Source of the DNA: a virus | Lineage: Duplodnaviria > Heunggongvirae > Uroviricota > Caudoviricetes | Virus record (IMG/VR): IMGVR_UViG_2529292833_000014 | Length of the DNA: 10,899 nt | Reading direction: 5' to 3' (one strand) | Shown here: positions 1 through 10,899 of the stretch, piece by piece | Numbering within the stretch: the stretch's first letter is position 1 | Layout of the letters: every line of letters starts with the position of its first letter | Position numbers and translations under genes: made by a program | The notes under the pieces: generated by a model | Database searches by the model: none | Seen by the model: only the letters and a program-made list of their open reading frames with translations | What the model was told of the DNA's origin: nothing

Positions 1-1230
1 ATGAGCAGAGCACTTAACAAACTGAGCGATACACAGCTAAGAAAAATCAACGGCACACCAGCCCCAAAAACCACATTTCTTAATGACGGTGGAAACCTGA
101 GCGTCAGGCATTCCACCAGCGGCTTGTTAACCTGGTATTTCACCTACAGGGCAGGAGCTGGACGCCAGGTATCACCGGAACGCCTGAAGCTGGGAAATTA
201 TCCTGATCTGAGCCTGAAAGCAGCCAGGGAAAAAGCGGCACAGTGTCGCGCATGGCTGGCAGAAGGAAAAAATCCACGCCATGAGCTTAATTACTCCATA
301 CAGGAAGCACTAAAGCCGGTAACGGTGGGTGATGCGATCAGCTACTGGCTGGAAATGCACGTAAAGGAAAACCGTGTCGATTACGTATGCCTGAAAAGCC
401 GCCTGAATAATCACGTCATACAGCATATTGGCAATATGCCACTGGATAAATGCGAGTTACGTCACTGGCTGGCCTGTTTTGACCGGATACGCAAAAAATC
501 CCCTGTAACGTCTGGTCACATGATGCAGGCGTGTAAACAGGCGCTTAAGTTCTGCCGTAAACGTCGCTACGCAGTCAGTAACGTTCTGGATGATCTTAAC
601 GTGGTGGACGTTGGCAAAAAACCAGGCATAAGCGAACGCGTGCTGAGCAACAAAGAACTTGGCGAATTATTACAGGCGCTGGATAAAAAAATATTCCCGC
701 CCTACTACAGCGCACTAATCCGCCTCCTGATTGTGTTCGGCTGCCGAACCGGAGAACTGAGATTATCGGAGATCAGGGAGGGGGATTTTAAGGAAATGCT
801 CTGGACAGTACCGAAAGAGCACAGCAAAACGAAGGTCGCCATATTCAGGCCAATACCGGAAAGCATTTTACCGTTCGTCACGCAGCTGGTGGAGCAGAAC
901 AGACACACAGGGCTATTACTCGGGGAACTGAAACAGGAAGCCAGTGTGTCGCAATACGGCAGATTCATGCACAAAAAATTAAACCATCCGCACTGGTCAC
1001 TACACGATATACGGCGCACGTTTACCACGATGCTGAACGATTTAGGCGTGGATCCGCATATTGTCGAACAACTCACCGCTCACCAGATGCCAGGGATGCA
1101 GCGAGTCTATAACCACTCCCGTTATCTCGATGCGAAACGTAATGCGCTGGACATGTGGACAGAGCGGTTAGAGATACTGGCGGGTACTCACAAAAACGTA
1201 ACCACACTGCCAATAGCCAGAGAAATATAA
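1..1230 (+). CDS. int: Tyrosine recombinase / phage-type integrase (P4-like Int family), 409 aa
   Basis: Full-length ORF. C-terminal region has the HxxR box (HDIRRTF) and a downstream tyrosine (RVYNHSRY) typical of tyrosine recombinases; N-terminus resembles the P4/CP4-57 integrase arm-binding region. The ATG is at window position 1, so upstream signals cannot be assessed. Confidence 0.9.
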   Translation: MSRALNKLSDTQLRKINGTPAPKTTFLNDGGNLSVRHSTSGLLTWYFTYRAGAGRQVSPERLKLGNYPDLSLKAAREKAAQCRAWLAEGKNPRHELNYSIQEALKPVTVGDAISYWLEMHVKENRVDYVCLKSRLNNHVIQHIGNMPLDKCELRHWLACFDRIRKKSPVTSGHMMQACKQALKFCRKRRYAVSNVLDDLNVVDVGKKPGISERVLSNKELGELLQALDKKIFPPYYSALIRLLIVFGCRTGELRLSEIREGDFKEMLWTVPKEHSKTKVAIFRPIPESILPFVTQLVEQNRHTGLLLGELKQEASVSQYGRFMHKKLNHPHWSLHDIRRTFTTMLNDLGVDPHIVEQLTAHQMPGMQRVYNHSRYLDAKRNALDMWTERLEILAGTHKNVTTLPIAREI

Positions 1231-1250
1231 TTTTTTTTGCGATTTTTTAG

Positions 1251-1310
1251 AACTGACACAACGTGAAACAACGAGACACCACGACGAACAACGGCGAACA
1301 ATCTGGAACA
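1251..1310. repeat. Helically phased direct repeat array, five to six 10-bp units (consensus ACGnnGAACA)
   Basis: Seen directly: units ACGTGAAACA, ACGAGACACC, ACGACGAACA, ACGGCGAACA, ATCTGGAACA begin at 1261, 1271, 1281, 1291, 1301 with exact 10-bp period, 20-80 bp after the int stop. Confidence 0.5.
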
Positions 1311-1597
1311 AACTTGATTAACATCTGACTGACACCCTAAAAAGTTGATTTTCAGTCGTTTTACTGGCTTTTTGTACATTGGCGAATCACTCTTAAAAAC
1401 ATGTAAAAAAGGCGTAAAAACAGAATTTTATGCCTTTGCACCACAATGAATTAAAAGAGTTTTTATTCTCATTACCACACTTCTGTAAAATGACCGCCGC
1501 CAGTGTTTGCCATTCCATAAACACCCTGACACAATCCGACGCACCACAACACAATAGGACACCAAATAACTCTTTAAGAAATATCAAAGGGGGAATT

Positions 1598-1786
1598 GTG
1601 TTAAGCACAGATCGCTTTATACGTGAAAAAGAATGTCAGCAACTTACAGGCCTGAGCCGTTCATGTCGGTACCGCCTGGAAAAAACCGGACAATTCCCAT
1701 CACGGCGTAAGCTCGGCGGTCGTTCCGTTGGCTGGTCTTTATCCGAAGTTCTGGCATGGAAGGAAAGCTGCGAGGCAGTTCACTAA
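1598..1786 (+). CDS. alpA: AlpA-family (MerR-like HTH, excisionase/activator type) regulator, about 62 aa from a GTG start
   Basis: Motif QQLTGLSRSCRYRLEKTGQFPSRRKLGGRSVGWSLSEVLAWKES matches the AlpA/Xis-type HTH pattern (LGGR.VGW). GTG at 1598 follows AAAGGGGGA by 4 nt; the ORF is open back to 1430, but that N-terminal extension lacks an RBS and looks non-coding. Confidence 0.7.
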   Translation: MLSTDRFIREKECQQLTGLSRSCRYRLEKTGQFPSRRKLGGRSVGWSLSEVLAWKESCEAVH

Positions 1787-1838
1787 TCAGGCTGGCGGCA
1801 CACAGCCGCCACCCATCCACTAATACAGAGATCTAACC

Positions 1839-2216
1839 ATGAATACTGGATATTCTCCCGAACAAGGGCGGGGCTTCGTTCGTCCTGAAAAACAGAATCT
1901 GCAAAATTTTGCCGAAATTATTCCGGTTATTTCCGGCCTTACTGGCGGGAGTGAAACCAATATTGTTAACGCCAGAGCGTTGCAGATGTTTGATGATAAA
2001 AAGGGAGTAAATTTAACTTACACCCCTGACGGCAATCAGAATATGAGCATTATCTCTGAGTCAGGTTTCTACAAACTAATAAAAACAAAAAGCGCCCCGT
2101 TGCCGGAGCGCCTTTGTGAACAATTAACCTACTGCGCAAAAAATGAATCTGAGCAGTGGGATTATATCAACCGTGTGGCGAAGCGCCACAATTGCCGGAT
2201 AACAGGCAAAACAAAG
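1839..2216 (+). pseudogene. Bro-N-like (phage antirepressor N-terminal domain) gene remnant; only the N-terminal ~125 codons look protein-like
   Basis: Translation DDKKGVNLTYTPDGNQNMSIISESGFYKLIKTKSAPLPERL resembles the Bro-N core (EKGV.LT...GG.Q.MSIINESGLYSLI..S..PEA). The same frame then runs on to 3251 as Ser/Arg-rich low-complexity sequence, antisense to better ORFs and across a promoter region. End coordinate is approximate. Confidence 0.3.
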
Positions 2217-2314
2217 GCCACCCGCTACGGTGGCCCCTCGACACAAGCTACACGTTATCCCCAACGCATGAGCATCACCAACAATGCCACATTTGCGGCT
2301 GGTGGGCAATGTGA

Positions 2315-2503
2315 TCAGTCAGATTTGGTTCGTTCCAAGGTTTGCAACGAGAGCTTTTTCCTGTGCTCTTTAAGGAATTTCTCAAGAGCAAAAGCACATG
2401 GCGCGAATCTTTCTGATTCATGCTCTATCTTTCTGCGCCGTCTTTTCCGTGCCGGTGATAATGTTTTGGTCAATTCTTTATCGGTCATTGTGTTGTCCTG
2501 CAT
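2315..2503 (-). CDS. Hypothetical small basic protein (62 aa)
   Basis: ORF on the minus strand directly downstream of the 2546..2851 gene and co-oriented with it; Lys/Arg-rich (ARKRRRRKIEHE). No recognisable domain. Weak support. Confidence 0.3.
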   Translation of the reverse strand: MQDNTMTDKELTKTLSPARKRRRRKIEHESERFAPCAFALEKFLKEHRKKLSLQTLERTKSD

Positions 2504-2545
2504 AGCAATGCGCCGTAATACCTTACACCACGGCGCTGGTGATGG

Positions 2546-2851
2546 TCACTCCTGCTCTTTGGCCTTGCGACGCTGGAGTTCTTCACGCGCGACGGTGATG
2601 AGTTGCCCGATCTCCTCGGCTGCTTTGACTCCGATTTTTTCCACCTGCGCCAGTGCATCGAGCGAAGAAACCAGGGGATTTTCTCCGCTTCCTTCTGCCT
2701 GGCGGCGGGCGATCTCACCGCGAACGGCTGTAATCACGAAAGCGGCTATTGTTTCCCCTTCCGTTTTCGAATTTTCCATTTCCTCGATTACATCATGGGG
2801 GAAGCGGATATTTTTCATTTGCGATCTGCTGTTGATATTTCCTGTTGCCAT
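2546..2851 (-). CDS. Putative small DNA-binding regulator (101 aa), possibly ribbon-helix-helix type
   Basis: Protein-like composition, in contrast to the Ser-rich opposite-strand frame. The N-terminal segment KNIRFPHDVIEEME followed by helical stretches is compatible with an RHH fold (inference). Transcribed divergently from the operator-bearing promoter region. Confidence 0.5.
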   Translation of the reverse strand: MATGNINSRSQMKNIRFPHDVIEEMENSKTEGETIAAFVITAVRGEIARRQAEGSGENPLVSSLDALAQVEKIGVKAAEEIGQLITVAREELQRRKAKEQE

Positions 2852-2872
2852 CAGAATGTCCGGTTATTTTGA

Positions 2873-2975
2873 GGTGTGCATACATTACACCAAAAGGTGT
2901 GTAAATAAAACACTTGACACTGTAGCGCACTTAAATTTAATCTGTACACACACCAATGATTGTGGTGTATGTACA
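2873..2975. promoter_or_regulatory. Divergent regulatory region: sigma70-like promoter (TTGACA 2914..2919, N16, TTTAAT 2936..2941) with repeated operator-like motif GGTGTRYRTACA
   Basis: Seen directly: GGTGTGCATACA (2873..2884), GGTGTGTAAATA (2896..2907), and an inverted pair TGTACACACACC (2943..2954) / GGTGTATGTACA (2964..2975) with a 9-bp spacer, immediately downstream of the -10 element. Confidence 0.5.
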
Positions 2976-3047
2976 GCAAAGCCCCGCAGTGCTGGAACAC
3001 ATGCAGGGCTTCTAACCACCAACGATAGCGAAAGTATCGAGGTAGCT

Positions 3048-3251
3048 ATGAGAAATTATACCAGACACCCGCAAGGGCGGGACTCGTACAACCTGAATAA
3101 ATACATCTGGCGTTTTATCGCCCTGAGCACGGCACAACCGCGCGTGATTACCATTGAGGCCACCAGCGAACAGGAAGCGCGTCAGCAATCTCCTGATGGC
3201 TGCGTGATGGTATTCGCTGCCCGTATTCGCCAGGGGGAACACCATGATTAA
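3048..3251 (+). CDS. Small protein (67 aa), Icd-like (host cell division inhibitor-like) family candidate
   Basis: ATG at 3048 preceded by GAGGT; motifs YIWRF and VMVFAARIRQGE resemble small prophage/satellite proteins annotated as Icd-like (from memory, moderate certainty). It is the C-terminal part of the long 1839..3251 reading frame. Confidence 0.5.
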   Translation: MRNYTRHPQGRDSYNLNKYIWRFIALSTAQPRVITIEATSEQEARQQSPDGCVMVFAARIRQGEHHD

Positions 3252-3453
3252 CCTGTCACTTACTGACCTTAACCGCGTTCAGTTTCGTGAGAAATTTACC
3301 GGGCAGCTACTGGTCAATGTGGATAAAGGTCGCGTGGTGTGTAATTACCACCTGCCAGATGAAGCCATTGTCGCAACAAGGGAATCATTACAGGAACTCG
3401 CAGAACGTGCCGGAATGATTAACGCGAATATTCAGGGGGTGAGCCATGCATAA
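3244..3453 (+). CDS. Hypothetical small protein (69 aa), paralog 1 of a tandem pair
   Basis: RBS GGGGG 6 nt upstream; start overlaps the previous stop by 8 nt; shares a (V/Y).(V/L)(D/E)KGRV.C core with the next gene. Confidence 0.6.
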   Translation: MINLSLTDLNRVQFREKFTGQLLVNVDKGRVVCNYHLPDEAIVATRESLQELAERAGMINANIQGVSHA

Positions 3454-3658
3454 TCATGAAACGCACTTACCTGTAGTGCTGAATGTGCCATCAGATTATA
3501 CGGGGCGCGTACTGGTGTATCTGGAAAAAGGCCGGGTTAAATGTCAGTGCCGTTTAATGGAAAACGAATTTATTAGCACTCTTGCGGGATTTTCTGAAAT
3601 GCTCACTAAATCGGGTGTTAGTGCAGACCAGTTACGCGGGGGCGATTATGCGAAATAA
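3446..3658 (+). CDS. Hypothetical small protein (70 aa), paralog 2 of a tandem pair
   Basis: RBS GGGGGTGAG upstream; overlaps the stop of paralog 1; about 30 percent identity to paralog 1 by eye (TG..LV...KGRV.C...L.E). Confidence 0.6.
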   Translation: MHNHETHLPVVLNVPSDYTGRVLVYLEKGRVKCQCRLMENEFISTLAGFSEMLTKSGVSADQLRGGDYAK

Positions 3659-3866
3659 ACATGATATTGAAGACCTGGCATTTGAAGCCCTGCACTCTGC
3701 GAAAAAAATCAGGGAAGTCGTCAATATGTGGATGAACAGCCTTAGCACCGATGAATCCGATAGCAGAGAGGAAATTCTTATTTCTTTGTTGTTAGACCTG
3801 GCAAATACACAGGTTTCTCTGACATCTGATATTGAACTCGCCGCTAAAAATCTGCCTCTGGAGTAA
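3648..3866 (+). CDS. Hypothetical small acidic protein (about 72 aa)
   Basis: ATG at 3648 in the 3582..3866 frame, overlapping the previous stop by 11 nt, G-rich RBS upstream. No recognisable domain. Confidence 0.45.
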   Translation: MRNKHDIEDLAFEALHSAKKIREVVNMWMNSLSTDESDSREEILISLLLDLANTQVSLTSDIELAAKNLPLE

Positions 3867-3872
3867 AAAAAC

Positions 3873-4172
3873 ATGAAACAGAAAAATTCTGGCTTTACTG
3901 CCAGTGGTCTCCCTCGGCCTGAAATCCGCCCCGGCGATATTTTCCGGGATAACTACGGTGGCACGGTAACGATTAAAAGCGTGGCGGGGCGGGGCGTTAC
4001 TTACCGCCGTGATGGGTACGGCTATGACTGCGTGATGCCTGCTTATCAGTTCCGGCGTGATTTTTCACTGATACAGGCCACACCACGCAAACAGCCCACC
4101 AGCAACGCAAAGGCACGGGCAAATATTCAGAAAATGAAAAACATGATTAACGCATTCAGGGGCAAAAAATGA
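3873..4172 (+). CDS. Hypothetical protein (99 aa)
   Basis: RBS GGAG about 8 nt upstream; stop overlaps the start of the replication gene (ATGA). No recognisable domain. Confidence 0.6.
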   Translation: MKQKNSGFTASGLPRPEIRPGDIFRDNYGGTVTIKSVAGRGVTYRRDGYGYDCVMPAYQFRRDFSLIQATPRKQPTSNAKARANIQKMKNMINAFRGKK

Positions 4173-5584
4173 AACTGGCACCGAACTTAAAAAAACAGCC
4201 ACACGACAAAATGACCGAAGTCATTATTTTTGCGGGTAGTGATGCCTGGGCGCACGCGAAACAGTGGCAGGAACAGGACGGGCGACTTGCTGGTGATAAC
4301 GTCCCGCCTGTATGGCTGGGAGACAGCCAGCTTGACGAACTGGCAGACCTGAAAATTATCGACGATGGTCGCTATTGTGTCCGGCTGTACAAGGCAGGCC
4401 ACATCAAGCCGTCAAATATTAATGCTATCGGGCAAAAGCTGGCGGCGGCAGGTGTACGGGATGCGAATTATTACCCTGATGGAATGCACAGCCAGAAGCT
4501 GGAGAACTGGCACGACTACCTGCAACGGATCCGCGAACAGGCAGAGCGCGGGGAAATACTTACTGACGAGCAATACAGCCAGCGAAAAACCACGCTACCA
4601 ATGAGCATTGGATCTGCAGGGTACGACACACAGCTTGATTATGTCGTTAAGGGCGTGATTCCGGCTAATTCATTGTGCAGCACATACGGCGCGAGCGGTT
4701 CCTATAAATCGTTCCTCGCGTGTTCCTGGGCGTGTCATGTTGCCACTGGCCGTCACTGGGGAGGCCGCAGGGTGGCGCATGGTTCGGTGATGTATGTTGT
4801 CGGTGAAGGTGGCATTGGTGCCCCCCGCCGTATCAAGGCATGGGAAATCGTTAATGATGAACGGGTGGAAAATCTGTACCTGGTAAACCGCCCGATTTTT
4901 CCGGCAGTCCCGCTTGATGTTGATGAAATGGTCATCGCTTCCCGCCAGGTTGAACGGGAAACGGGTAAACCGGTACGCATGATTATTCTTGATACGCTGG
5001 CGCGTTGCTTTGGCGGTAATGATGAAAATGACGCGCGGGATATGGGGGCGTTTATCCGTGGATGTGACGAACTGAAACGCCGCACAGGGGCCACGGTGCT
5101 GGTGGTTCACCATTCCGGCAAGGATGAAACAAAGGGGGCGCGTGGTTCCAGTGCATTTCGTGCATCTCTGGACGCTGAATACCGTATTCGCCGTGAAGGT
5201 GCAGACAGTGAAGCCCTGGTTATCTCCTGCACAAAAATGAAGGACGCGGAGGAACTGAAAGAGGCCGCATACGATTTACGTGTGGGGGAGCTTTTTACCG
5301 ACACTGACGGGGAGTTAATCACGTCGCTGGTTGTTGTGGATAAGCCGCGCCCACCCGTTGAACTGGAGCGCATCGAGGAAGCCGGGAACAAGACGGAGAA
5401 TCATGCCGCGCTATGGGGCTGTATCCGTTCACGCACACAGCGCGGAGATAAATGCACTATTCCGTTGTTGCGCGATGATATGAAAAAGCTGGGGTATGAG
5501 ATGAAACACTTCCGGCGCTGGCTGTACAAGCTGGAAGGTGATGGCGTTATTGCTATTGACGGTGATGACGTGCGCCCACTGTAA
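4169..5584 (+). CDS. Replication initiator / RepA-like (AAA_25, RecA-fold) ATPase with a probable C-terminal DNA-binding domain, 471 aa
   Basis: P-loop-like YGASGSYKSFLA, Walker-B-like hydrophobic stretch ending in D (MIILDTLARCFGG), and VLVVHHSGKD typical of RepA/DnaB-like AAA_25 proteins; followed immediately by an iteron cluster. Translationally coupled to the upstream gene. Confidence 0.8.
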   Translation: MKLAPNLKKQPHDKMTEVIIFAGSDAWAHAKQWQEQDGRLAGDNVPPVWLGDSQLDELADLKIIDDGRYCVRLYKAGHIKPSNINAIGQKLAAAGVRDANYYPDGMHSQKLENWHDYLQRIREQAERGEILTDEQYSQRKTTLPMSIGSAGYDTQLDYVVKGVIPANSLCSTYGASGSYKSFLACSWACHVATGRHWGGRRVAHGSVMYVVGEGGIGAPRRIKAWEIVNDERVENLYLVNRPIFPAVPLDVDEMVIASRQVERETGKPVRMIILDTLARCFGGNDENDARDMGAFIRGCDELKRRTGATVLVVHHSGKDETKGARGSSAFRASLDAEYRIRREGADSEALVISCTKMKDAEELKEAAYDLRVGELFTDTDGELITSLVVVDKPRPPVELERIEEAGNKTENHAALWGCIRSRTQRGDKCTIPLLRDDMKKLGYEMKHFRRWLYKLEGDGVIAIDGDDVRPL

Positions 5585-5776
5585 AAAGTGGGTAGTAAAA
5601 GTGGGGAGTGTGGGGAATTTAACAAAATTGAAACGTGATTCCCCACTTTCCCACCTGTATATACCCCAAAAAGTGGGGAATAAAAAACACATTGAAAAAC
5701 ATCACGTTAGAATCACAAAAAAAAGAAGTGGGGAGACGTTGGGTAATTTCAAAAAGTGGGTAGTAAAAGTGGGGAG
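5583..5776. repeat. Iteron-type origin of replication: two identical 26-bp direct repeats flanking further AAGTGGGGA(G) copies and an AT-rich spacer
   Basis: Seen directly: AAAAAGTGGGTAGTAAAAGTGGGGAG at 5583..5608 and 5751..5776 (identical); extra copies at 5609..5617, 5671..5680, 5726..5735 and one inverted at 5639..5648; AT-rich stretch 5680..5725. Confidence 0.65.
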
Positions 5777-5785
5777 CAGTGAGGA

Positions 5786-6037
5786 ATGACCAGAAAAACC
5801 AGAGATAAGACAGCGCCAAAATATAAAGCGTTAGACATGACAGAGCACGCCTTAAAGGTGGCAATCAGAACGATAGACCGCCACGCTGGGGAAGGATACG
5901 CGAAAGCACACCCCGAACTGATAAGCGCATTCATGACCACGACGGCGGCAAACTTTGCCACGCTGACAGAACGGGAGATTGCCGAAGCGGAACAGGTGAC
6001 AACCATCAACGTTAAAACTGGAGAGCAGACAGCATGA
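5786..6037 (+). CDS. Hypothetical protein (83 aa)
   Basis: GGGGAG 9 nt upstream of the ATG; stop overlaps the ssb start (ATGA). No recognisable domain. Confidence 0.5.
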   Translation: MTRKTRDKTAPKYKALDMTEHALKVAIRTIDRHAGEGYAKAHPELISAFMTTTAANFATLTEREIAEAEQVTTINVKTGEQTA

Positions 6038-6399
6038 CAGCACAGATAGCGGCTTACGGGCGGCTGGTGGCTGACCCGCAGTTAAAGACCACCAGCAAGG
6101 GTACACAAATGACGATGGCTAGTATGGCGGTCCCCCTTCCGTGCAGCCAGGCAGATGACGGAACGGCGACGATGTGGTTATCCGTCCTGGCGTTTGGCAG
6201 ACAGGCCGACGCACTGGCAAAACACCACAAAGGCGAACTGGTGAGCGTGGCGGGTAACATGCAGGTAAGGCAGTGGACAGGCCAGAACGGCGAAACGCGG
6301 CAGGGCTGGCAGGTTATCGCAGACAGTGTAATCAGTGCCAGAACGGCGCGACCGGGCGGCAAAAAAAAGGTCAACAGGACCAGGCTACTGACGCACTGA
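6034..6399 (+). CDS. ssb: Single-stranded DNA-binding protein (OB-fold core), 121 aa in the zero frame; the canonical acidic tail is encoded in the -1 frame
   Basis: WLSVLAFGRQADALAKHHKGELVSVAGNMQVRQWTGQNGETRQGWQV aligns with the E. coli SSB core (WHRVVLFGKLAEVA...GQLRTRKWTDQSGQDR). The zero frame ends ...GGKKKVNRTRLLTH without a tail. Confidence 0.75.
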   Translation: MTAQIAAYGRLVADPQLKTTSKGTQMTMASMAVPLPCSQADDGTATMWLSVLAFGRQADALAKHHKGELVSVAGNMQVRQWTGQNGETRQGWQVIADSVISARTARPGGKKKVNRTRLLTH

Positions 6400-6458
6400 A
6401 CAGGGCAAAACAACAGTCGGGGAATGATGATCCGTACGGCGATAATATACCGTTTTAA
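6363..6458 (+). other. -1 frame segment encoding the SSB linker and acidic tail (...QQSGNDDPYGDNIPF), reached from the ssb frame at the A8 run / A_AAA_AAG heptamer (6363..6369)
   Basis: Seen directly by translating the -1 frame from the A run 6361..6368. The tail tip DNIPF matches the conserved SSB C-terminus (DDDIPF in E. coli SSB). Confidence 0.6.
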
Positions 6459-6475
6459 ATTCTGCAAATAAAAAA

Positions 6476-6504
6476 ATGCCGGAAGAAAATAGATTTTCCG
6501 GCAT
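6476..6504 (-). terminator. Intrinsic-terminator-like hairpin oriented for leftward transcription
   Basis: Perfect 9-bp stem ATGCCGGAA (6476..6484) / TTCCGGCAT (6496..6504) with an 11-nt loop. The A7 run at 6470..6476 becomes the U tract only on the minus strand; there is no T run after the hairpin on the plus strand. Confidence 0.4.
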
Positions 6505-6675
6505 GCTACATAAATCCCGACCAAAGGAAGTAAATACATTAACACGAATTATCAGCACTGAAGTTGTCACGGCAGATTTTATACAACATTGCACTTGGTT
6601 GCATGTATTCGCATAGCAAATATCGGTGATAGCATATATCCACAATTATTTTTAATGAATGCAAAGAGGATGCGT

Positions 6676-7716
6676 ATGGTTGATTTATATTCGCCTGCCC
6701 AGCTTGTGCAGGTGGCTAATGCTGAAGATGTGCAAAAAAAATTAAATGCGTTGTTTACCAGTTTGTTTTTCACTCGCTCGGTAATGTTTGAATCGAGAGA
6801 CATTATTCTTGATACGATCGACGATCCAAATATCCCGATCGCGGCGTTTTGCTCTCCTATGGTGGGCAGTAAGGTTTCACGAGATGAGGGATACGAATCA
6901 AAAACAATTCGCCCTGGCTATATGAAACCGAAAAGCAGCATTGATCCAAATAAGTTAGCTGTGCGCCCTGCTGGTGTGTCACCTGAGCAATACAATGCTT
7001 TTGGGGCGCGTAATATTAAAGTTAAACAGGCGATTGTAAATCAGGCTAAAGCTATTCGTGCACGTATTGAATGGCTTGCTGTTCAGGCAATCACAACGGG
7101 GAAAAATATCATTGAGGGCGATGGTATTGAACGTTATGAGCTGGACTGGAATATAAAACCACAAAATATTATCACGCAGTCTGGCGGTGCTGAGTGGTCA
7201 GGTAAGGATAAAGAAACTTTTGATCCAAATGATGATATTGAGAGCTACGCAGAATTTAGTGAGGGCGTCACTAATATCATCATTATGGGCGGTAATGTAT
7301 GGAAGAAATACCGTTCATTCAGAGCGATAAAAGAGGCTCTGGATACCCGTCGTGGTTCTAATTCCGAACTGGAAACGGCCCTTAAAGACCTTGGTGATTC
7401 GGTGAGTTTTAAAGGGTATATGGGCGATGTTGCGATTGTTGTTTACAGCGGACGTTATACCGACGAGGACGGAACTGAAAAACATTTCCTTGATCCTGAT
7501 TTGATGGTGCTTGGCAATACGGCTCTTCAGGGGATTGTCGCCTATGGCGGTATTCAGGATCCGGAGCTAATCCGAATGGGGCTGACTAAAGCCGAACTTG
7601 CACCGAAAAACTATATTGTGCCTGGTGATCCGGCTATTGAGTACGTACAAACGCACTCTGCACCACAGCCAATACCGGCCCGCATCAATCGTTTTGTTAC
7701 CGTTCGCATTGGCTAA
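6676..7716 (+). CDS. Major capsid protein, lambda gpE-like (about 346 aa)
   Basis: Long collinear matches to lambda gpE as recalled: ITQSGGAEWSGKDKETFDPNDDIESYA vs ITQSGGTEWSKRDKSTYDPTDDIEAYA, and LDTRRGSNSELETALKDLGDSVSFKGYMGDVAIVVYSGRY vs LDTRRGSNSELETAVKDLGKAVSYKGMYGDVAIVVYSGQY. Start chosen at ATG 6676 (GAGG 6 nt upstream); the ORF is open from 6589. Confidence 0.9.
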   Translation: MVDLYSPAQLVQVANAEDVQKKLNALFTSLFFTRSVMFESRDIILDTIDDPNIPIAAFCSPMVGSKVSRDEGYESKTIRPGYMKPKSSIDPNKLAVRPAGVSPEQYNAFGARNIKVKQAIVNQAKAIRARIEWLAVQAITTGKNIIEGDGIERYELDWNIKPQNIITQSGGAEWSGKDKETFDPNDDIESYAEFSEGVTNIIIMGGNVWKKYRSFRAIKEALDTRRGSNSELETALKDLGDSVSFKGYMGDVAIVVYSGRYTDEDGTEKHFLDPDLMVLGNTALQGIVAYGGIQDPELIRMGLTKAELAPKNYIVPGDPAIEYVQTHSAPQPIPARINRFVTVRIG

Positions 7717-7725
7717 GGGGGAGCA

Positions 7726-8067
7726 ATGGCTACTCATTACACTGAACTCATGTCTGGCACTGAAGCACTGGTTACTACGCTGGGGATATTTTCAGCCAAT
7801 AAAGGGGTAATACCTGCGTTTACGCCACTGATGCAGGAAGATGCAACTGGTGCGCTAGTGGTATGGGATGGAACGAGCGCAGGCAAAGCGGTTTATGTTT
7901 CCGCTGTACAAATCGACACAGCGAAAAAAACACAGGCACAGGTTTATAAGACAGGTGTTTTAAATGTTGATGCTCTGAACTGGCCTGAGTCTGTAAAAGA
8001 ACTGTCGGCAAAGGTTGCCGCGTTTGTTGGCTCAGGTATTTCTGTTCAGCCGCTGGCTCGTGTGTAA
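7726..8067 (+). CDS. Head decoration protein, lambda gpD-like (113 aa)
   Basis: FTPLMQEDATGALVVWDGTSAGKAV...YKTGVLNVDALNWPE matches lambda gpD [25 protein letters not shown]...YKSGTFRYEDVLWPE (recalled); similar length; RBS AAGGGGGAG. Confidence 0.85.
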   Translation: MATHYTELMSGTEALVTTLGIFSANKGVIPAFTPLMQEDATGALVVWDGTSAGKAVYVSAVQIDTAKKTQAQVYKTGVLNVDALNWPESVKELSAKVAAFVGSGISVQPLARV

Positions 8068-8078
8068 AGGGGGATACA

Positions 8079-8462
8079 ATGCAGAATCATTACAATGACC
8101 TTAAGCCAATTGCCGAAATGATGTATCCGGATCCAGCAGTAGAGGAATTAAAGGCTATTGCTGACAAAATGCGTTTAAGTGAACGCCTTGTTGATATGAA
8201 TCAGGTGATGGAACTTACTACCCTTAGCCGTCGCACATTGCTAAACCTTGAGGCTCGCGGAGAGTTCCCCGAACGCGTACAGGTTACGGAAGGGCGTGAG
8301 GCCTGGTATTTAAGCGAAGTGATCGACTGGATAAACAATATTCCTCGAGCTTCTGAATATTGCCGCGTACCTGTCCCAAAAAAGCCAGATGCGGCGCTAT
8401 GCCTCAAGATTGAGCGTGTACGCCGCAATGCACGGGATGGTCGCTATAAGTTGATTGGTTGA
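8079..8462 (+). CDS. AlpA/MerR-like HTH domain protein (127 aa) with N- and C-terminal extensions
   Basis: Central segment MNQVMELTTLSRRTLLNLEARGEFPERVQVTEGREAWYLSEVIDWINN has the AlpA/excisionase-type HTH pattern; RBS AAAGGGGGA. Sits between the decoration gene and the cos site. Confidence 0.65.
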   Translation: MQNHYNDLKPIAEMMYPDPAVEELKAIADKMRLSERLVDMNQVMELTTLSRRTLLNLEARGEFPERVQVTEGREAWYLSEVIDWINNIPRASEYCRVPVPKKPDAALCLKIERVRRNARDGRYKLIG

Positions 8463-8488
8463 TGAAATTAGGGCCCGTTCTGGCTGGC

Positions 8489-8600
8489 GGGTCCTTTCCG
8501 GCGATCCGGTAGGCTACGGGGCGGCGACCTTGCGGATTTTCGCTATTTATGAGCCTTTTCGGGTTGGTGGTGGTGGTTTTGTTTTTCGCTCTATCTCTAT
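8489..8600. other. Lambda-type cos site (cosQ-proximal region, cosN with 12-nt cohesive-end sequence GGGCGGCGACCT at 8519..8530, divergent cosB-like region)
   Basis: Seen directly and compared with the recalled lambda termini: GGGTCCTTTCCGGCGATCCGGTAGGCTACG / GGGCGGCGACCT / TGCGGATTTTCGCTATTTATGAGCCTTTTCGGGTT versus lambda GGGTCCTTTCCGGTGATCCGACAGGTTACG / GGGCGGCGACCT / CGCGGGTTTTCGCTATTTATGAAAATTTTCCGGTT. Sequence diverges from lambda downstream of about 8567. Confidence 0.8.
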
Positions 8601-8663
8601 GAATAAAAAGGGAAAGATAACACCAACACACCAACCTGAAACCTTAACTAAGTGGGGATATTG

Positions 8664-9206
8664 ATGAAATCGCACCTGATGAACAAAAAAACTATGGCGC
8701 AAAGCTGCCGCGTAAGTGCGACAGCGTTCGACAAGTGGGGAGTAACTCCCGTTGAGCGTAAAGGCCGTGAGGCGTTTTATGATGTTGCTAGCGTGATAGA
8801 CAATAGGGTTAACAATGCAATTAACCAGCTTACAAACGACAAAGGCGAGATTGATGATGATGAACTTTTACGCGTAAGAATCAGATTGCTGACAGCACAG
8901 GCGGAAGCGCAGGAACTTAAAAACGAGCGCGAACGCGGCGAGGTGATTGATACAAAGTTTTGCATCTACGCGATTTCAAAACTAGCGAGTCAGATTTCAT
9001 CAATCATGGACAGCCTCCCGCTCACAATGCAAAGGCGCTTTCCCGATATAAGGCCGTATATGCTGGATGAACTAAAAAGGGAAATAGCCAAAGCATGTAA
9101 CGCATGTGCAAGACTTGACGAAAACCTGCCACAGATACTGGCTGATTACCTGATGGAAACTACCGGAAGCGCGCCTGAGAAGTTGCTACAGAACAAAGGC
9201 GAGTAA
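8664..9206 (+). CDS. Terminase small subunit homolog, lambda gpNu1-like (candidate packaging-redirecting protein)
   Basis: RLLTAQAEAQELKNERERGEVIDTKFCIYAISKLASQISSIMDSLPLTMQRRFPDI matches lambda Nu1 RLTRAQADAQELKNARDSAEVVETAFCTFVLSRIAGEIASILDGLPLSVQRRFPEL (recalled); the N-terminal NKKTMAQ aligns with Nu1 NKKQLAD. Start is uncertain: ATG 8664 has the best RBS (GGGGA, 5 nt), ATG 8679 fits the Nu1 alignment best, and the ORF is open from 8652. Confidence 0.85.
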   Translation: MKSHLMNKKTMAQSCRVSATAFDKWGVTPVERKGREAFYDVASVIDNRVNNAINQLTNDKGEIDDDELLRVRIRLLTAQAEAQELKNERERGEVIDTKFCIYAISKLASQISSIMDSLPLTMQRRFPDIRPYMLDELKREIAKACNACARLDENLPQILADYLMETTGSAPEKLLQNKGE

Positions 9207-9279
9207 CCGCCGCCCCGTAACGGGCCATAATTCCAGGAAGGACCTGACGACACCAGGCTATCAGAGCGATGGGGGCACA

Positions 9280-9561
9280 ATGACAGAAGCCGAAATACTG
9301 CGATTAATCCGCCGCGTTACCGGAATCAGCCAGCAGGCTGACGAACAGGCCACGCAGCCGGACAGCGTGACCGCTGAAAATTATGTGCGTGTTGTTGCTG
9401 AGGTGATGCGCCGTGACGGTATCGAGCTTAACGGCGTGGATATGCGCAACATACGCACCAGAGTTCTGGAGATGTTGTCGTACCGTCGCCGCGTGCAGAT
9501 GTACCAAGAGAAAGAAAAAATTACTTACCACTGGAAGAAGCCGGAACGGTTACGACGTTAA
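9280..9561 (+). CDS. Hypothetical protein (93 aa)
   Basis: ORF with GGGGG 4 nt upstream of the ATG; no recognisable domain; last gene before the non-coding boundary region. Confidence 0.45.
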   Translation: MTEAEILRLIRRVTGISQQADEQATQPDSVTAENYVRVVAEVMRRDGIELNGVDMRNIRTRVLEMLSYRRRVQMYQEKEKITYHWKKPERLRR

Positions 9562-9607: not shown

Positions 9608-10093
9608 AGACGGTATTTAAATCGGGTGGTGTTTAATACCCCCAGGGGGATAGAAATCCCTACACCTCATTGCTTATGGGACCGCCCGCCTACCCTTGTT
9701 CACATCGCCGCAGGTTCGAAAACTTTTTTTGGGAAGGTGTGCACGGGATTGATAGATGAGGTCTATCTATAAAAAATCACAAAATCCGCGCCATTGCTGG
9801 ATCCGCCAAAAATCCCCCACCTTACGGCAGACAAAGAAAACGCGAATTATGGGCCTGTTGCAGAGAAAAAAGGTCTCACTAGTTTTGCGCACCCTAGCAT
9901 CGAGGTTCGTCAGCCTCCCATCAGCAACCAGATAACTAATCTCGCTGGTGGGCATGATGCCGATATGGGGACTTCCATAACGGTTTATCCGTGATCATCC
10001 ACCAGCTTCATGGCGGATAGCCGGAAAATGATAACGGTATAGCCCGTCGCTTGTGTCTATTTGTTCCGCATTGTTGCATACAGTGCACCGAAC

Positions 10094-10117
10094 GGTGTAG
10101 TTAATGGTGTAGTTAAT
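10094..10117. repeat. Perfect tandem duplication of the 12-mer GGTGTAGTTAAT
   Basis: Seen directly at 10094..10105 and 10106..10117, in the AT-rich region upstream of the Smr-domain gene. Confidence 0.85.
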
Positions 10118-10335
10118 TTGCGATTTTTAACGTTATTTGCAGCGATGTTTGTTGGTTAAATTCAATAAGTTATGCGCATTTAATTATAAATATCGTGAAT
10201 GAATAATCATGCATAAGCATTTTGCTTAAAATATCGGCAATATTTGGAACTTATTACTGGAATTTTGGGTAATACGTTGTTGGACCGACCCGGTCTGGTT
10301 ATCATATCGCGCTCTTAATTGCGGGAGGATGTAAC

Positions 10336-10899
10336 ATGAACCTTGACGACAAATCGCTGTTTCTTGACGCCATGGAAGATGTCCAGCCGCTGAAACGAGC
10401 TACAGATGTCCACTGGCATCCAACGCGTAACCAACGTGCGCCGCAGCGTATCGACACGCTGCAGCTTGATAATTTCCTCACCACCGGATTTCTCGACATC
10501 ATCCCACTAAGTCAGCCGCTGGAGTTTCGGCGGGAAGGGTTGCAACATGGGGTGCTGGATAAGCTGCGCAGTGGTAAATATCCGCAACAGGCGAGCCTGA
10601 ATCTTTTGCGCCAGCCGGTGGAAGAGTGCCGCAAAATGGTGTTCAGTTTCATTCAACAAGCCCTGGCGGATGGTTTGCGTAATGTGCTGATTATTCATGG
10701 TAAAGGGCGGGAAGATAAATCGCATGCCAATATTGTCCGCAGCTATGTGGCGCGCTGGCTGACCGAATTTGATGATGTTCAGGCATATTGCACTGCGCTA
10801 CCGCATCATGGCGGCAGCGGGGCGGGTTACGTCGCACTACGTAAAACGGCGCAGGCGAAGCAAGAAAACTGGGAGCGCCACGCTAAGCGCAGTCGTTGA
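10336..10899 (+). CDS. smrA: Smr-domain protein, SmrA/YdaL-like (187 aa), chromosomal
   Basis: Full ORF with RBS GGGAGGAT; Smr-type motif LIIHGKGRED (HGxG); the 187-aa length and MNLDDKSLFLDAMEDVQPLK N-terminus fit E. coli SmrA (YdaL) rather than the 183-aa SmrB, as recalled. The symbol is held with moderate certainty; the product class is firm. Confidence 0.75.
   Translation: MNLDDKSLFLDAMEDVQPLKRATDVHWHPTRNQRAPQRIDTLQLDNFLTTGFLDIIPLSQPLEFRREGLQHGVLDKLRSGKYPQQASLNLLRQPVEECRKMVFSFIQQALADGLRNVLIIHGKGREDKSHANIVRSYVARWLTEFDDVQAYCTALPHHGGSGAGYVALRKTAQAKQENWERHAKRSR

Follow-up and report, generated by a model that had tools for sequence, protein, structure and literature searches.

A Nu1-type small terminase encoded beside the cos site of an Escherichia coli PICI is a candidate packaging-specificity subunit

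Introduction

What use can a satellite make of a small terminase (TerS) encoded directly 3' of its own cos site, when the same element encodes no large terminase (TerL)? This question is raised by an open reading frame at positions 8664-9206 of a 10,899-nucleotide stretch of DNA, hereafter the window, from the IMG/VR virus record IMGVR_UViG_2529292833_000014. The element is one of the PICIs, which carry virulence and defence genes between enterobacteria. To our knowledge, Rpp is the only packaging-hijack mechanism that has been worked out for Gram-negative cos PICIs.

Gram-negative PICIs that encode a TerS are already catalogued and are common. The catalogue of 2018 includes islands with a terS homologue, and the IHE3034 and 18098 islands are described there as islands that 'encode TerS' (Fillol-Salom et al., PMC6092414). 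When their resident prophages served as helpers, these two islands, EcCIIHE3034 and EcCI18098, yielded only <1 to 110 CFU on transfer, and the search for a helper was unsuccessful (PMC6092414). In SatelliteFinder, the small terminase is a core component of PICIs that is 'responsible for redirecting the packaging' (PMC10085698). The interpretation presented below restates this working assumption of the field, and our literature searches found no functional study of a Nu1-type TerS from a Gram-negative PICI. The N15-like domain of the protein, its cosB, the cos pattern of helper-satellite pairs, the chimeric proteins and the genome counts go beyond the published work that we found.

Results

The window contains a Gram-negative PICI

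The att repeats and gene content identify the element in the window as a 10,139-bp Gram-negative PICI of E. coli. The attR core, CGGTGTAGTTAATGGTGTAGTTAATT, is a 26-nt direct repeat at 10093-10118 (no strand), and its attL counterpart is found 10,139 bp upstream, just beyond the window edge. The window extends from the start codon of the integrase gene to the chromosomal smrA gene, which begins at 10336. The window matches E. coli O114:H49 strain 90-9280 with 100% identity, and in that strain the island is located between abgR and smrA. This site differs from that of the reference PICIs EcCIIHE3034 and EcCI18098, which are inserted between cspD and clpS. Since the island is not inside the late gene of a helper, it is not a helper-embedded PICI. 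The att core is the sequence given in the 2018 supplementary table for EcCIDI14 (the 'IS110 transposase' site). The att sequence of EcCIEC2733.1, an island reported at lysR-smrA in the same table, is absent from the window. The abgR/lysR-smrA site is used by islands of the terS type, as in the window, and of the rpp type, being also the site of EcCIEC2733.1.

All island genes lie on one strand. The tyrosine integrase (1-1230, +; Pfam, RefSeq) is followed by the alpA regulator (1598-1786, +; RefSeq), then by small ORFs and a DUF4222 protein, and by a RepA-type helicase of the AAA_25 family (4169-5584, +; Pfam, PHROG). An identical pair of 26-nt repeats, AAAAAGTGGGTAGTAAAAGTGGGGAG, is located directly 3' of the helicase gene at 5583-5608 and 5751-5776; these are probably origin iterons, marking the replication origin. 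The packaging end of the island comprises a major capsid protein of the lambda gpE family (6676-7716, +; 42% identity), a head decoration protein of the lambda gpD family (7726-8067, +; 40% identity), a 127-aa AlpA-like helix-turn-helix protein directly 5' of cos (8079-8462, +), the terS gene, and a conserved 93-aa ORF (9280-9561, +) that matches PHROG 1561, a group of unknown function. An integrase, alpA, a replication module with its origin, genes in one direction, a length of ~10 kb and att repeats are all features of a PICI, and no tail or lysis genes were found in the island. A tblastn search with nine lambda proteins (Nu1, A, W, B, C, D, E, FI and FII) detected homologues of Nu1, D and E only; none of A, W, B, C, FI or FII was found in the window. 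The island is therefore not a capsid-forming PICI (cf-PICI), a class that encodes TerL, portal, protease and head-tail connectors.

Further features of the island are as follows. The 127-aa protein at 8079-8462, the second AlpA-like protein of the island, ends 26 bp 5' of cosQ and matches PDB 8c3t (E 1.7e-10); at this position EcCIIHE3034 and EcCICFT073 encode a hypothetical protein of 137 aa instead. RefSeq places a 470-aa 'Icd-like' protein, for which no Pfam match was obtained, at 1839-3251 (+). In related islands the Icd-like gene encodes ~66 aa and small genes occupy the opposite strand, and the window has (-) strand ORFs at 2315-2503 and 2546-2851; the long 'Icd-like' ORF was probably over-called across a region of antisense genes. 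The SSB gene (6034-6399) is frameshifted, encoding 121 aa as compared with 136-140 aa in related islands, and is a pseudogene in RefSeq. Two adjacent, overlapping small ORFs (3244-3453 and 3446-3658) both match PHROG 340, of unknown function, and look like a tandem duplication. Finally, the 93-aa ORF is always found 3' of terS or rppA, the EcCICFT073 copy being 86% identical, and might have a packaging-related role.

The ORF 3' of cos encodes a Nu1-family small terminase

The terS gene (8664-9206, +) starts with an ATG and encodes 180 aa; Pfam, PHROG and BLASTP support its assignment, and RefSeq carries the label 'terminase small subunit' at the same coordinates. The protein matches Pfam PF07471 (Phage_Nu1) over aa 33-148 with an E-value of 1.2e-23 and a score of 83.9 bits, above the curated family threshold of 30, and PHROG 57 ('terminase small subunit') over aa 1-172 with an E-value of 1.3e-52. 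NCBIfam gave no model match. The ATG is located 133 bp 3' of a cosN 12-mer, with the candidate cosB between cosN (8519-8530) and the gene. The sequence-only reading had described a Nu1-type TerS directly 3' of the element's own cos and lacking a TerL, and the Pfam score, the position of cosN and the tblastn search bear this out. The C-terminal domain of a TerS is expected to bind the cognate TerL encoded alongside it; this element has no TerL gene.

The same reading had placed homology to lambda Nu1 in both the N- and C-terminal parts of the protein. The pairwise BLASTP alignment confirms this, because it covers aa 6-166 of the window protein and 3-180 of lambda Nu1, with 37% identity (E 3e-35). 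From this alignment the protein can be divided into a DNA-binding domain at the N terminus (~aa 1-45), a short linker (46-84), a central region (85-126) and a C-terminal domain (127-180), which are 43%, 26%, 52% and 41% identical to lambda Nu1, respectively. Conservation between satellite and lambda-type TerS is highest in the central region, lambda aa 99-140, with 52-55% identity as against 26-43% elsewhere. The predicted secondary structure (helices at 8-14, 19-24 and 41-56, and two strands) fits a winged helix, for which the model has a pLDDT of 57; this AlphaFold2 model, built from a 22-sequence alignment, is of low confidence. A search of solved structures with the single terS sequence returned no terminase match, and the family profile matched lambda TerS 1-98 (6hn7_B) weakly, with an E-value of 0.003, and 1j9i with an E-value of 1.

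Among 50,697 phage records, the closest phage protein to the window TerS is N15 gp1, with 47.6% identity, and no phage TerS is more than 60% identical. The C-terminal domain is of a type that carries a 14-residue extension, TTGSAPEKLLQNKGE, and in a tblastn search of these records its identity to phage TerS did not exceed 55%. When the last 84 aa were used to query a large protein collection, they retrieved only fragments of the same family and no cognate helper. Scanning genome contigs for relatives yielded mainly lambda-type prophages, with two satellite-type loci only. Tiny contigs 98-100% identical to lambda Nu1/A were also present in assemblies of Kitasatospora, Paenibacillus, Bradyrhizobium and others (loci L012-L017, L019, L021, L030-L033, L035, L039, L041, L043, L044, L053 and L055); such lambda-identical short contigs in unrelated bacteria are most likely lambda DNA contamination.

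A helper-type cosN is followed by a different candidate cosB

The cosN 12-mer, GGGCGGCGACCT (8519-8530, +), reproduces the lambda cohesive-end sequence exactly and is present as a single copy in the window. A cosQ-like GGGTCCT (8489-8495, +) is located 30 bp 5' of cosN, spaced as in lambda; the same heptamer is found at lambda 48473-48479, which we take to be cosQ. The right flank of cosN (8531-8556, +; core TTTCGCTATTTATGA) is near-identical to lambda bp 13-38. The lambda-like sequence ends at about 8557-8566, and what lies beyond is unrelated to lambda cosB. The cosN-to-ATG region measures 145 bp in the window and 190 bp in lambda. No match to the IHF consensus WATCAANNNNTTR was found in 8531-8663 with up to two mismatches, and a second cos such as that of EcCICFT073 was not found in the window.

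Counted from the cohesive end, R3 occupies bp 50-65 in lambda and bp 48-60 in N15, and the R3 equivalents of PICIs have been argued to fall at bp 48-65 (Murialdo and Feiss review, PMC9026076). On the basis of conservation and of this positional argument, we propose that TTTCGGGTTGGTGGTGGTGGTTTTGTT (8557-8583, +) is the R3 equivalent of the satellite cosB. Within it, bp 48-65 (8566-8583) read GGTGGTGGTGGTTTTGTT, and bp 48-60, GGTGGTGGTGGTT, agree in register with the N15 R3 interval, GAGGTTGTTGTTT, at 8 of 13 positions. A putative inverted R2-like element follows at 8619-8641 (-); its arm, CACCAACCTGAAA (8629-8641), is complementary to 8557-8569 at 12 of 13 positions and lies at bp 111-123 from cosN, about as far as lambda R2. 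No third repeat was detected in the window cosB.

The motif GGTGGTGGTG(G/T)TT(T/G)TT and the inverted CACC(A/C)ACCTG are kept in the window, in EcCIIHE3034 and in the satellites of locus L059 and of the enterobacterial loci L127, L005 and L006. In the L068 satellite the GGT repeat is kept, but the copy of the inverted element is weak. Across the satellites with a conserved GGT cosB, TerS identity drops to 54%. This cosB is found in most of the TerS-type satellites examined and is absent from their helpers, and EcCICFT073, which carries rppA, has another sequence in the R3 interval. The GGT-repeat cosB co-occurs with the satellite type of DNA-binding domain.

The DNA-binding domain resembles that of N15

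The putative recognition helix of the window TerS, TAFDKWGV, is near-identical to QAFDKWGV of N15 gp1 (7 of 8 positions) and agrees with RTIQNWQE of lambda at a single position of 8. Like N15 and unlike lambda, the window protein is without the GGG wing insertion and without ~17 residues of α3 and the linker. To judge from these features, the DNA-binding domain is N15-like and not lambda-like. The likeness to N15 gp1 thus comprises a short wing and α3, the recognition helix, and an R3 of G/T triplet repeats in register. The two systems differ in that N15 gene 1 is followed by its own TerL gene whereas terS has no adjacent TerL gene in the window, and the C-terminal half of the window protein is 37% identical to that of N15. 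N15 TerS (gene 1, L067:89-595) has an N-terminal domain that is closest to the satellite family (59-61% identity) and a C-terminal half of the lambda type (76-80% identity); it may have arisen by recombination that joined this half to a DNA-binding domain of the satellite type. With lambda gpNu1, the window TerS shares the Pfam family, the cos-terS arrangement, the cosN 12-mer and the cosQ spacing, but it has neither the overlapping A gene nor the longer, unrelated cosB of lambda.

Helper and satellite share cosQ and differ in cosB

Relatives whose TerS shows 54-56% identity sit inside lambda-type E genes; one such TerS is P0105 (54% identity), whose islands lie in the capsid E gene of lambdoid prophages. 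Islands inside a late gene of their helper prophage are known as helper-embedded PICIs (Mageeney et al. 2023, PMC10111431). By re-centring on the helper D gene, helper and satellite were brought into one locus, and three such pairs were compared (L068, L127 and L005/L042). All three helpers are lambda-like, with a Nu1 86-88% and a gpA 88-89% identical to lambda and a lambda-type R3. The cosQ is common to satellite and helper in every pair and cosN in two of them (L068 and L005/L042). In L005/L042 (Kosakonia sp. S29, FONB01000025.1) an unusual cosN variant, GGGCGGCAGACT, is common to both partners. The L127 satellite has the cosN GGGCGGCGACCT, from which that of its helper, GGGCGGCGTCCT, differs by one base. 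Within each of the three pairs cosB differs, the helper having the lambda-type R3 and the satellite GGT repeats. A common cosQ and cosN with a different cosB is the pattern expected if the helper TerL cuts satellite DNA that a different TerS selects.

Two satellite TerS proteins are chimeric (L127:18824-19321 and L006:10001-10498). Their N-terminal ~100 residues are of the satellite type, and their C-terminal half is near-identical to that of a lambda-type helper Nu1 (the helper Nu1 of L127 is at 4430-4972). These chimeras mirror the logic of lambda-21 hybrids, in which the TerS C-terminal half specifies TerL binding (PMC9026076). That satellites have gained a helper-type C-terminal half is the best indirect evidence available that this half engages the helper TerL. 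The L068 satellite departs from this arrangement, its C-terminal domain being ~37% identical to that of lambda Nu1 and its helper having an 87% lambda-like Nu1. A further combination was observed in a PICI of E. coli PapRG-04-4 (L149:6420-7313, NZ_CP049201), which encodes a 194-aa TerS with a lambda-like long N-terminal part and a C-terminal half of the window type; it has a cosB with CATGTCGG-type repeats and the cosN GGGCGGCAGACG, and next to the island are P2-like genes for baseplate and tail.

EcCIIHE3034 has the same order as the window of capsid, decoration protein, small ORF, cos, terS and 93-aa ORF, and its cosN-to-ATG region is ~90% identical. The two TerS proteins share 87% identity, with 96% in the DNA-binding domain and 74% in the C-terminal domain. 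Between the two genes the overall dN/dS is 0.17, each domain having a value of 0.08-0.20, and terS is under purifying selection. The dS reaches 1.09 in the C-terminal domain, as compared with 0.25 in the DNA-binding domain. Because dS is far higher there and dN/dS is low throughout, the C-terminal half has been exchanged and not degraded.

terS and rppA occupy the same slot

The terS family is present in 793 of 5,426 complete E. coli genomes (~15%), with intact, near full-length copies in 763 of them. DNA similar to rppA was found in 110 of these genomes (~2%) by a nucleotide search that may miss the more distant RppC type, which makes the terS-type cassette ~7 times more frequent than rppA-like DNA. 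The int-alpA-rep-E-D-cos-terS layout is kept at several att sites and across genera. EcCICFT073 (L148) has the same module as the window, with rppA replacing terS and the 93-aa ORF next to it, and TerS-type islands (L059-L062) are inserted between roxA and phoQ, at the same site and with the same backbone as EcCICFT073. Since either terS or rppA is found 3' of cos in the same module and at the same att site, the two genes are alternative, exchangeable cassettes.

Discussion

Our preferred reading, which we hold with moderate confidence on the comparative evidence given above, is that the ORF provides a Gram-negative PICI of the cos type with its packaging-specificity subunit. After induction and replication of the island, the N15-like winged-helix N-terminal domain would bind the island's own cosB, in which an R3-like element of GGT repeats (bp 39-65 from cosN) is joined by an inverted R2-like copy (bp 111-123). 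The central and C-terminal part of the protein would recruit a lambdoid helper's large terminase, a member of the gpA family. This helper TerL would nick the helper-type cosN beside cosB, and island concatemers would be packaged into helper-derived heads. Four copies of the 10.14-kb island amount to 84% of the lambda length. We infer DNA binding, TerL recruitment and any interference with the helper by the satellite TerS.

That a satellite-encoded small subunit could pair with the helper TerL and redirect packaging to the satellite cosB, thereby blocking packaging of the helper, had been suggested by the sequence-only reading. Selection of a satellite-specific cosB is favoured by the GGT cosB, the common cosQ and cosN, the chimeras and the selection on terS. 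Neither a pairing of the window's C-terminal type, which reaches no more than 55% identity to phage TerS, with any TerL nor a block of helper packaging is supported by the comparisons. Counting against the proposed mechanism as a whole are this C-terminal type, the mismatch between satellite and helper in L068, the poor transfer of related islands, the low confidence of the structure model and the weak N-terminal likeness to the solved lambda domain.

Rpp offers the closest comparison. As in the window, the gene of Rpp PICIs is located directly 3' of a cos that has a helper-type cosQ and cosN and a private cosB, and both proteins are proposed to retarget the helper terminase. Rpp does so by forming a heterodimer with the TerS of the helper (Fillol-Salom et al. 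2019, PMC6739421). RppA, RppB and RppC comprise 139-154 aa, consist of a DNA-binding domain and a coiled-coil dimerisation helix, are without the Nu1 central and C-terminal regions, and need the helper TerS to reach TerL; unlike them, the window protein is a complete TerS of 180 aa. It is not a truncated or diverged Rpp either, given its length, the lack of any BLASTP alignment and an hhalign probability of 0.1% against RppA.

We regard it as unlikely, though deserving of attention, that the satellite TerS acts in the manner of Rpp and co-assembles with helper Nu1 through its central region instead of working alone. A mixed oligomer would then bind the satellite cosB, the helper subunits would contact TerL, and recognition of the helper cosB would be poisoned, resulting in interference. 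The central region is indeed the best conserved with lambda-type TerS and is near helper-identical in the L127 and L006 chimeras, so that mixed oligomers seem hard to avoid. The occurrence of terS and rppA in the same slot, backbone and roxA-phoQ site points in the same direction, given that Rpp heterodimerises with the helper TerS (PMC6739421), and co-assembly would account for a C-terminal domain unlike that of any phage TerS. However, the residues that make the dimer contacts of the lambda DNA-binding domain (I11, F12, G13, S43, A44, I47 and A51) are mostly replaced in the window protein (by S, C, R, V, A, I and a gap), and the protein has lost the α3 segment that in lambda carries Y50 and E65, the residues gripped by Rpp. 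The window TerS has no sequence or profile similarity to RppA. Co-assembly would also make superfluous a complete C-terminal domain that is under selection (dN/dS 0.15-0.17), a domain that the Rpp proteins do without.

It is very improbable that the protein serves interference only, as an anti-phage decoy that titrates the helper TerL or binds helper DNA and is dispensable for packaging of the island. PICIs commonly interfere with their helpers, Rpp acts at the TerS step, and a satellite-specific C-terminal module could be a high-affinity trap for TerL. A decoy leaves unexplained, however, why a cosB distinct from that of the helper is found at the lambda/N15 TerS-binding position and co-varies with the type of DNA-binding domain, and why cosQ, and in most pairs cosN, stays compatible with the helper. 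The least credible alternative is an inert remnant of the head region (E, D, cos, Nu1) of a degraded lambdoid or N15-like prophage, which the neighbouring lambda E and D homologues, the frameshifted SSB gene and the poor transfer of related islands might suggest, but which is at odds with a dN/dS of 0.17, intact ORFs in 763 genomes, a layout conserved at several att sites and across genera, and an E-D-cos-Nu1 order that is not the Nu1-A-W-B-C-D-E order of lambda.

The packaging-specificity subunit that we favour has a counterpart in SaPI TerS, a satellite small terminase that, as far as the summary of Ubeda 2007 in PMC6739421 goes, packages satellite DNA through the helper TerL. The analogy is one of function; the SaPI system is a headful (pac) one of Gram-positive bacteria and has a separate protein, Ppi, that blocks the phage TerS.

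The comparisons suggest a modular family. At least two types of DNA-binding domain with their cosB can be distinguished, namely an N15-like type with GGT repeats and a lambda-like long type with CATGTCGG repeats (L149). These appear to have been recombined with at least three C-terminal types, one helper-identical, one of an Enterobacter type and one specific to E. coli satellites (none >60% identical among 50,697 phage records). This last type of C-terminal module may capture a helper TerL in a manner unlike the helper's own TerS, possibly giving a broader helper range. It is conceivable, although we hold this only tentatively, that E. coli PICIs use their Nu1-type TerS as a mix-and-match adaptor, which would be the main hijack route in E. 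coli.

These results do not overturn current views. The comparative data predict which bases make up the satellite cosB, and also that cosN must match the helper. The C-terminal half is predicted to decide which helper TerL is used, and transfer of TerS-type islands, unlike that of Rpp islands, is predicted to survive loss of the helper TerS. Such predictions may be of use for the choice of helpers and for the engineering of PICI-based delivery vehicles.
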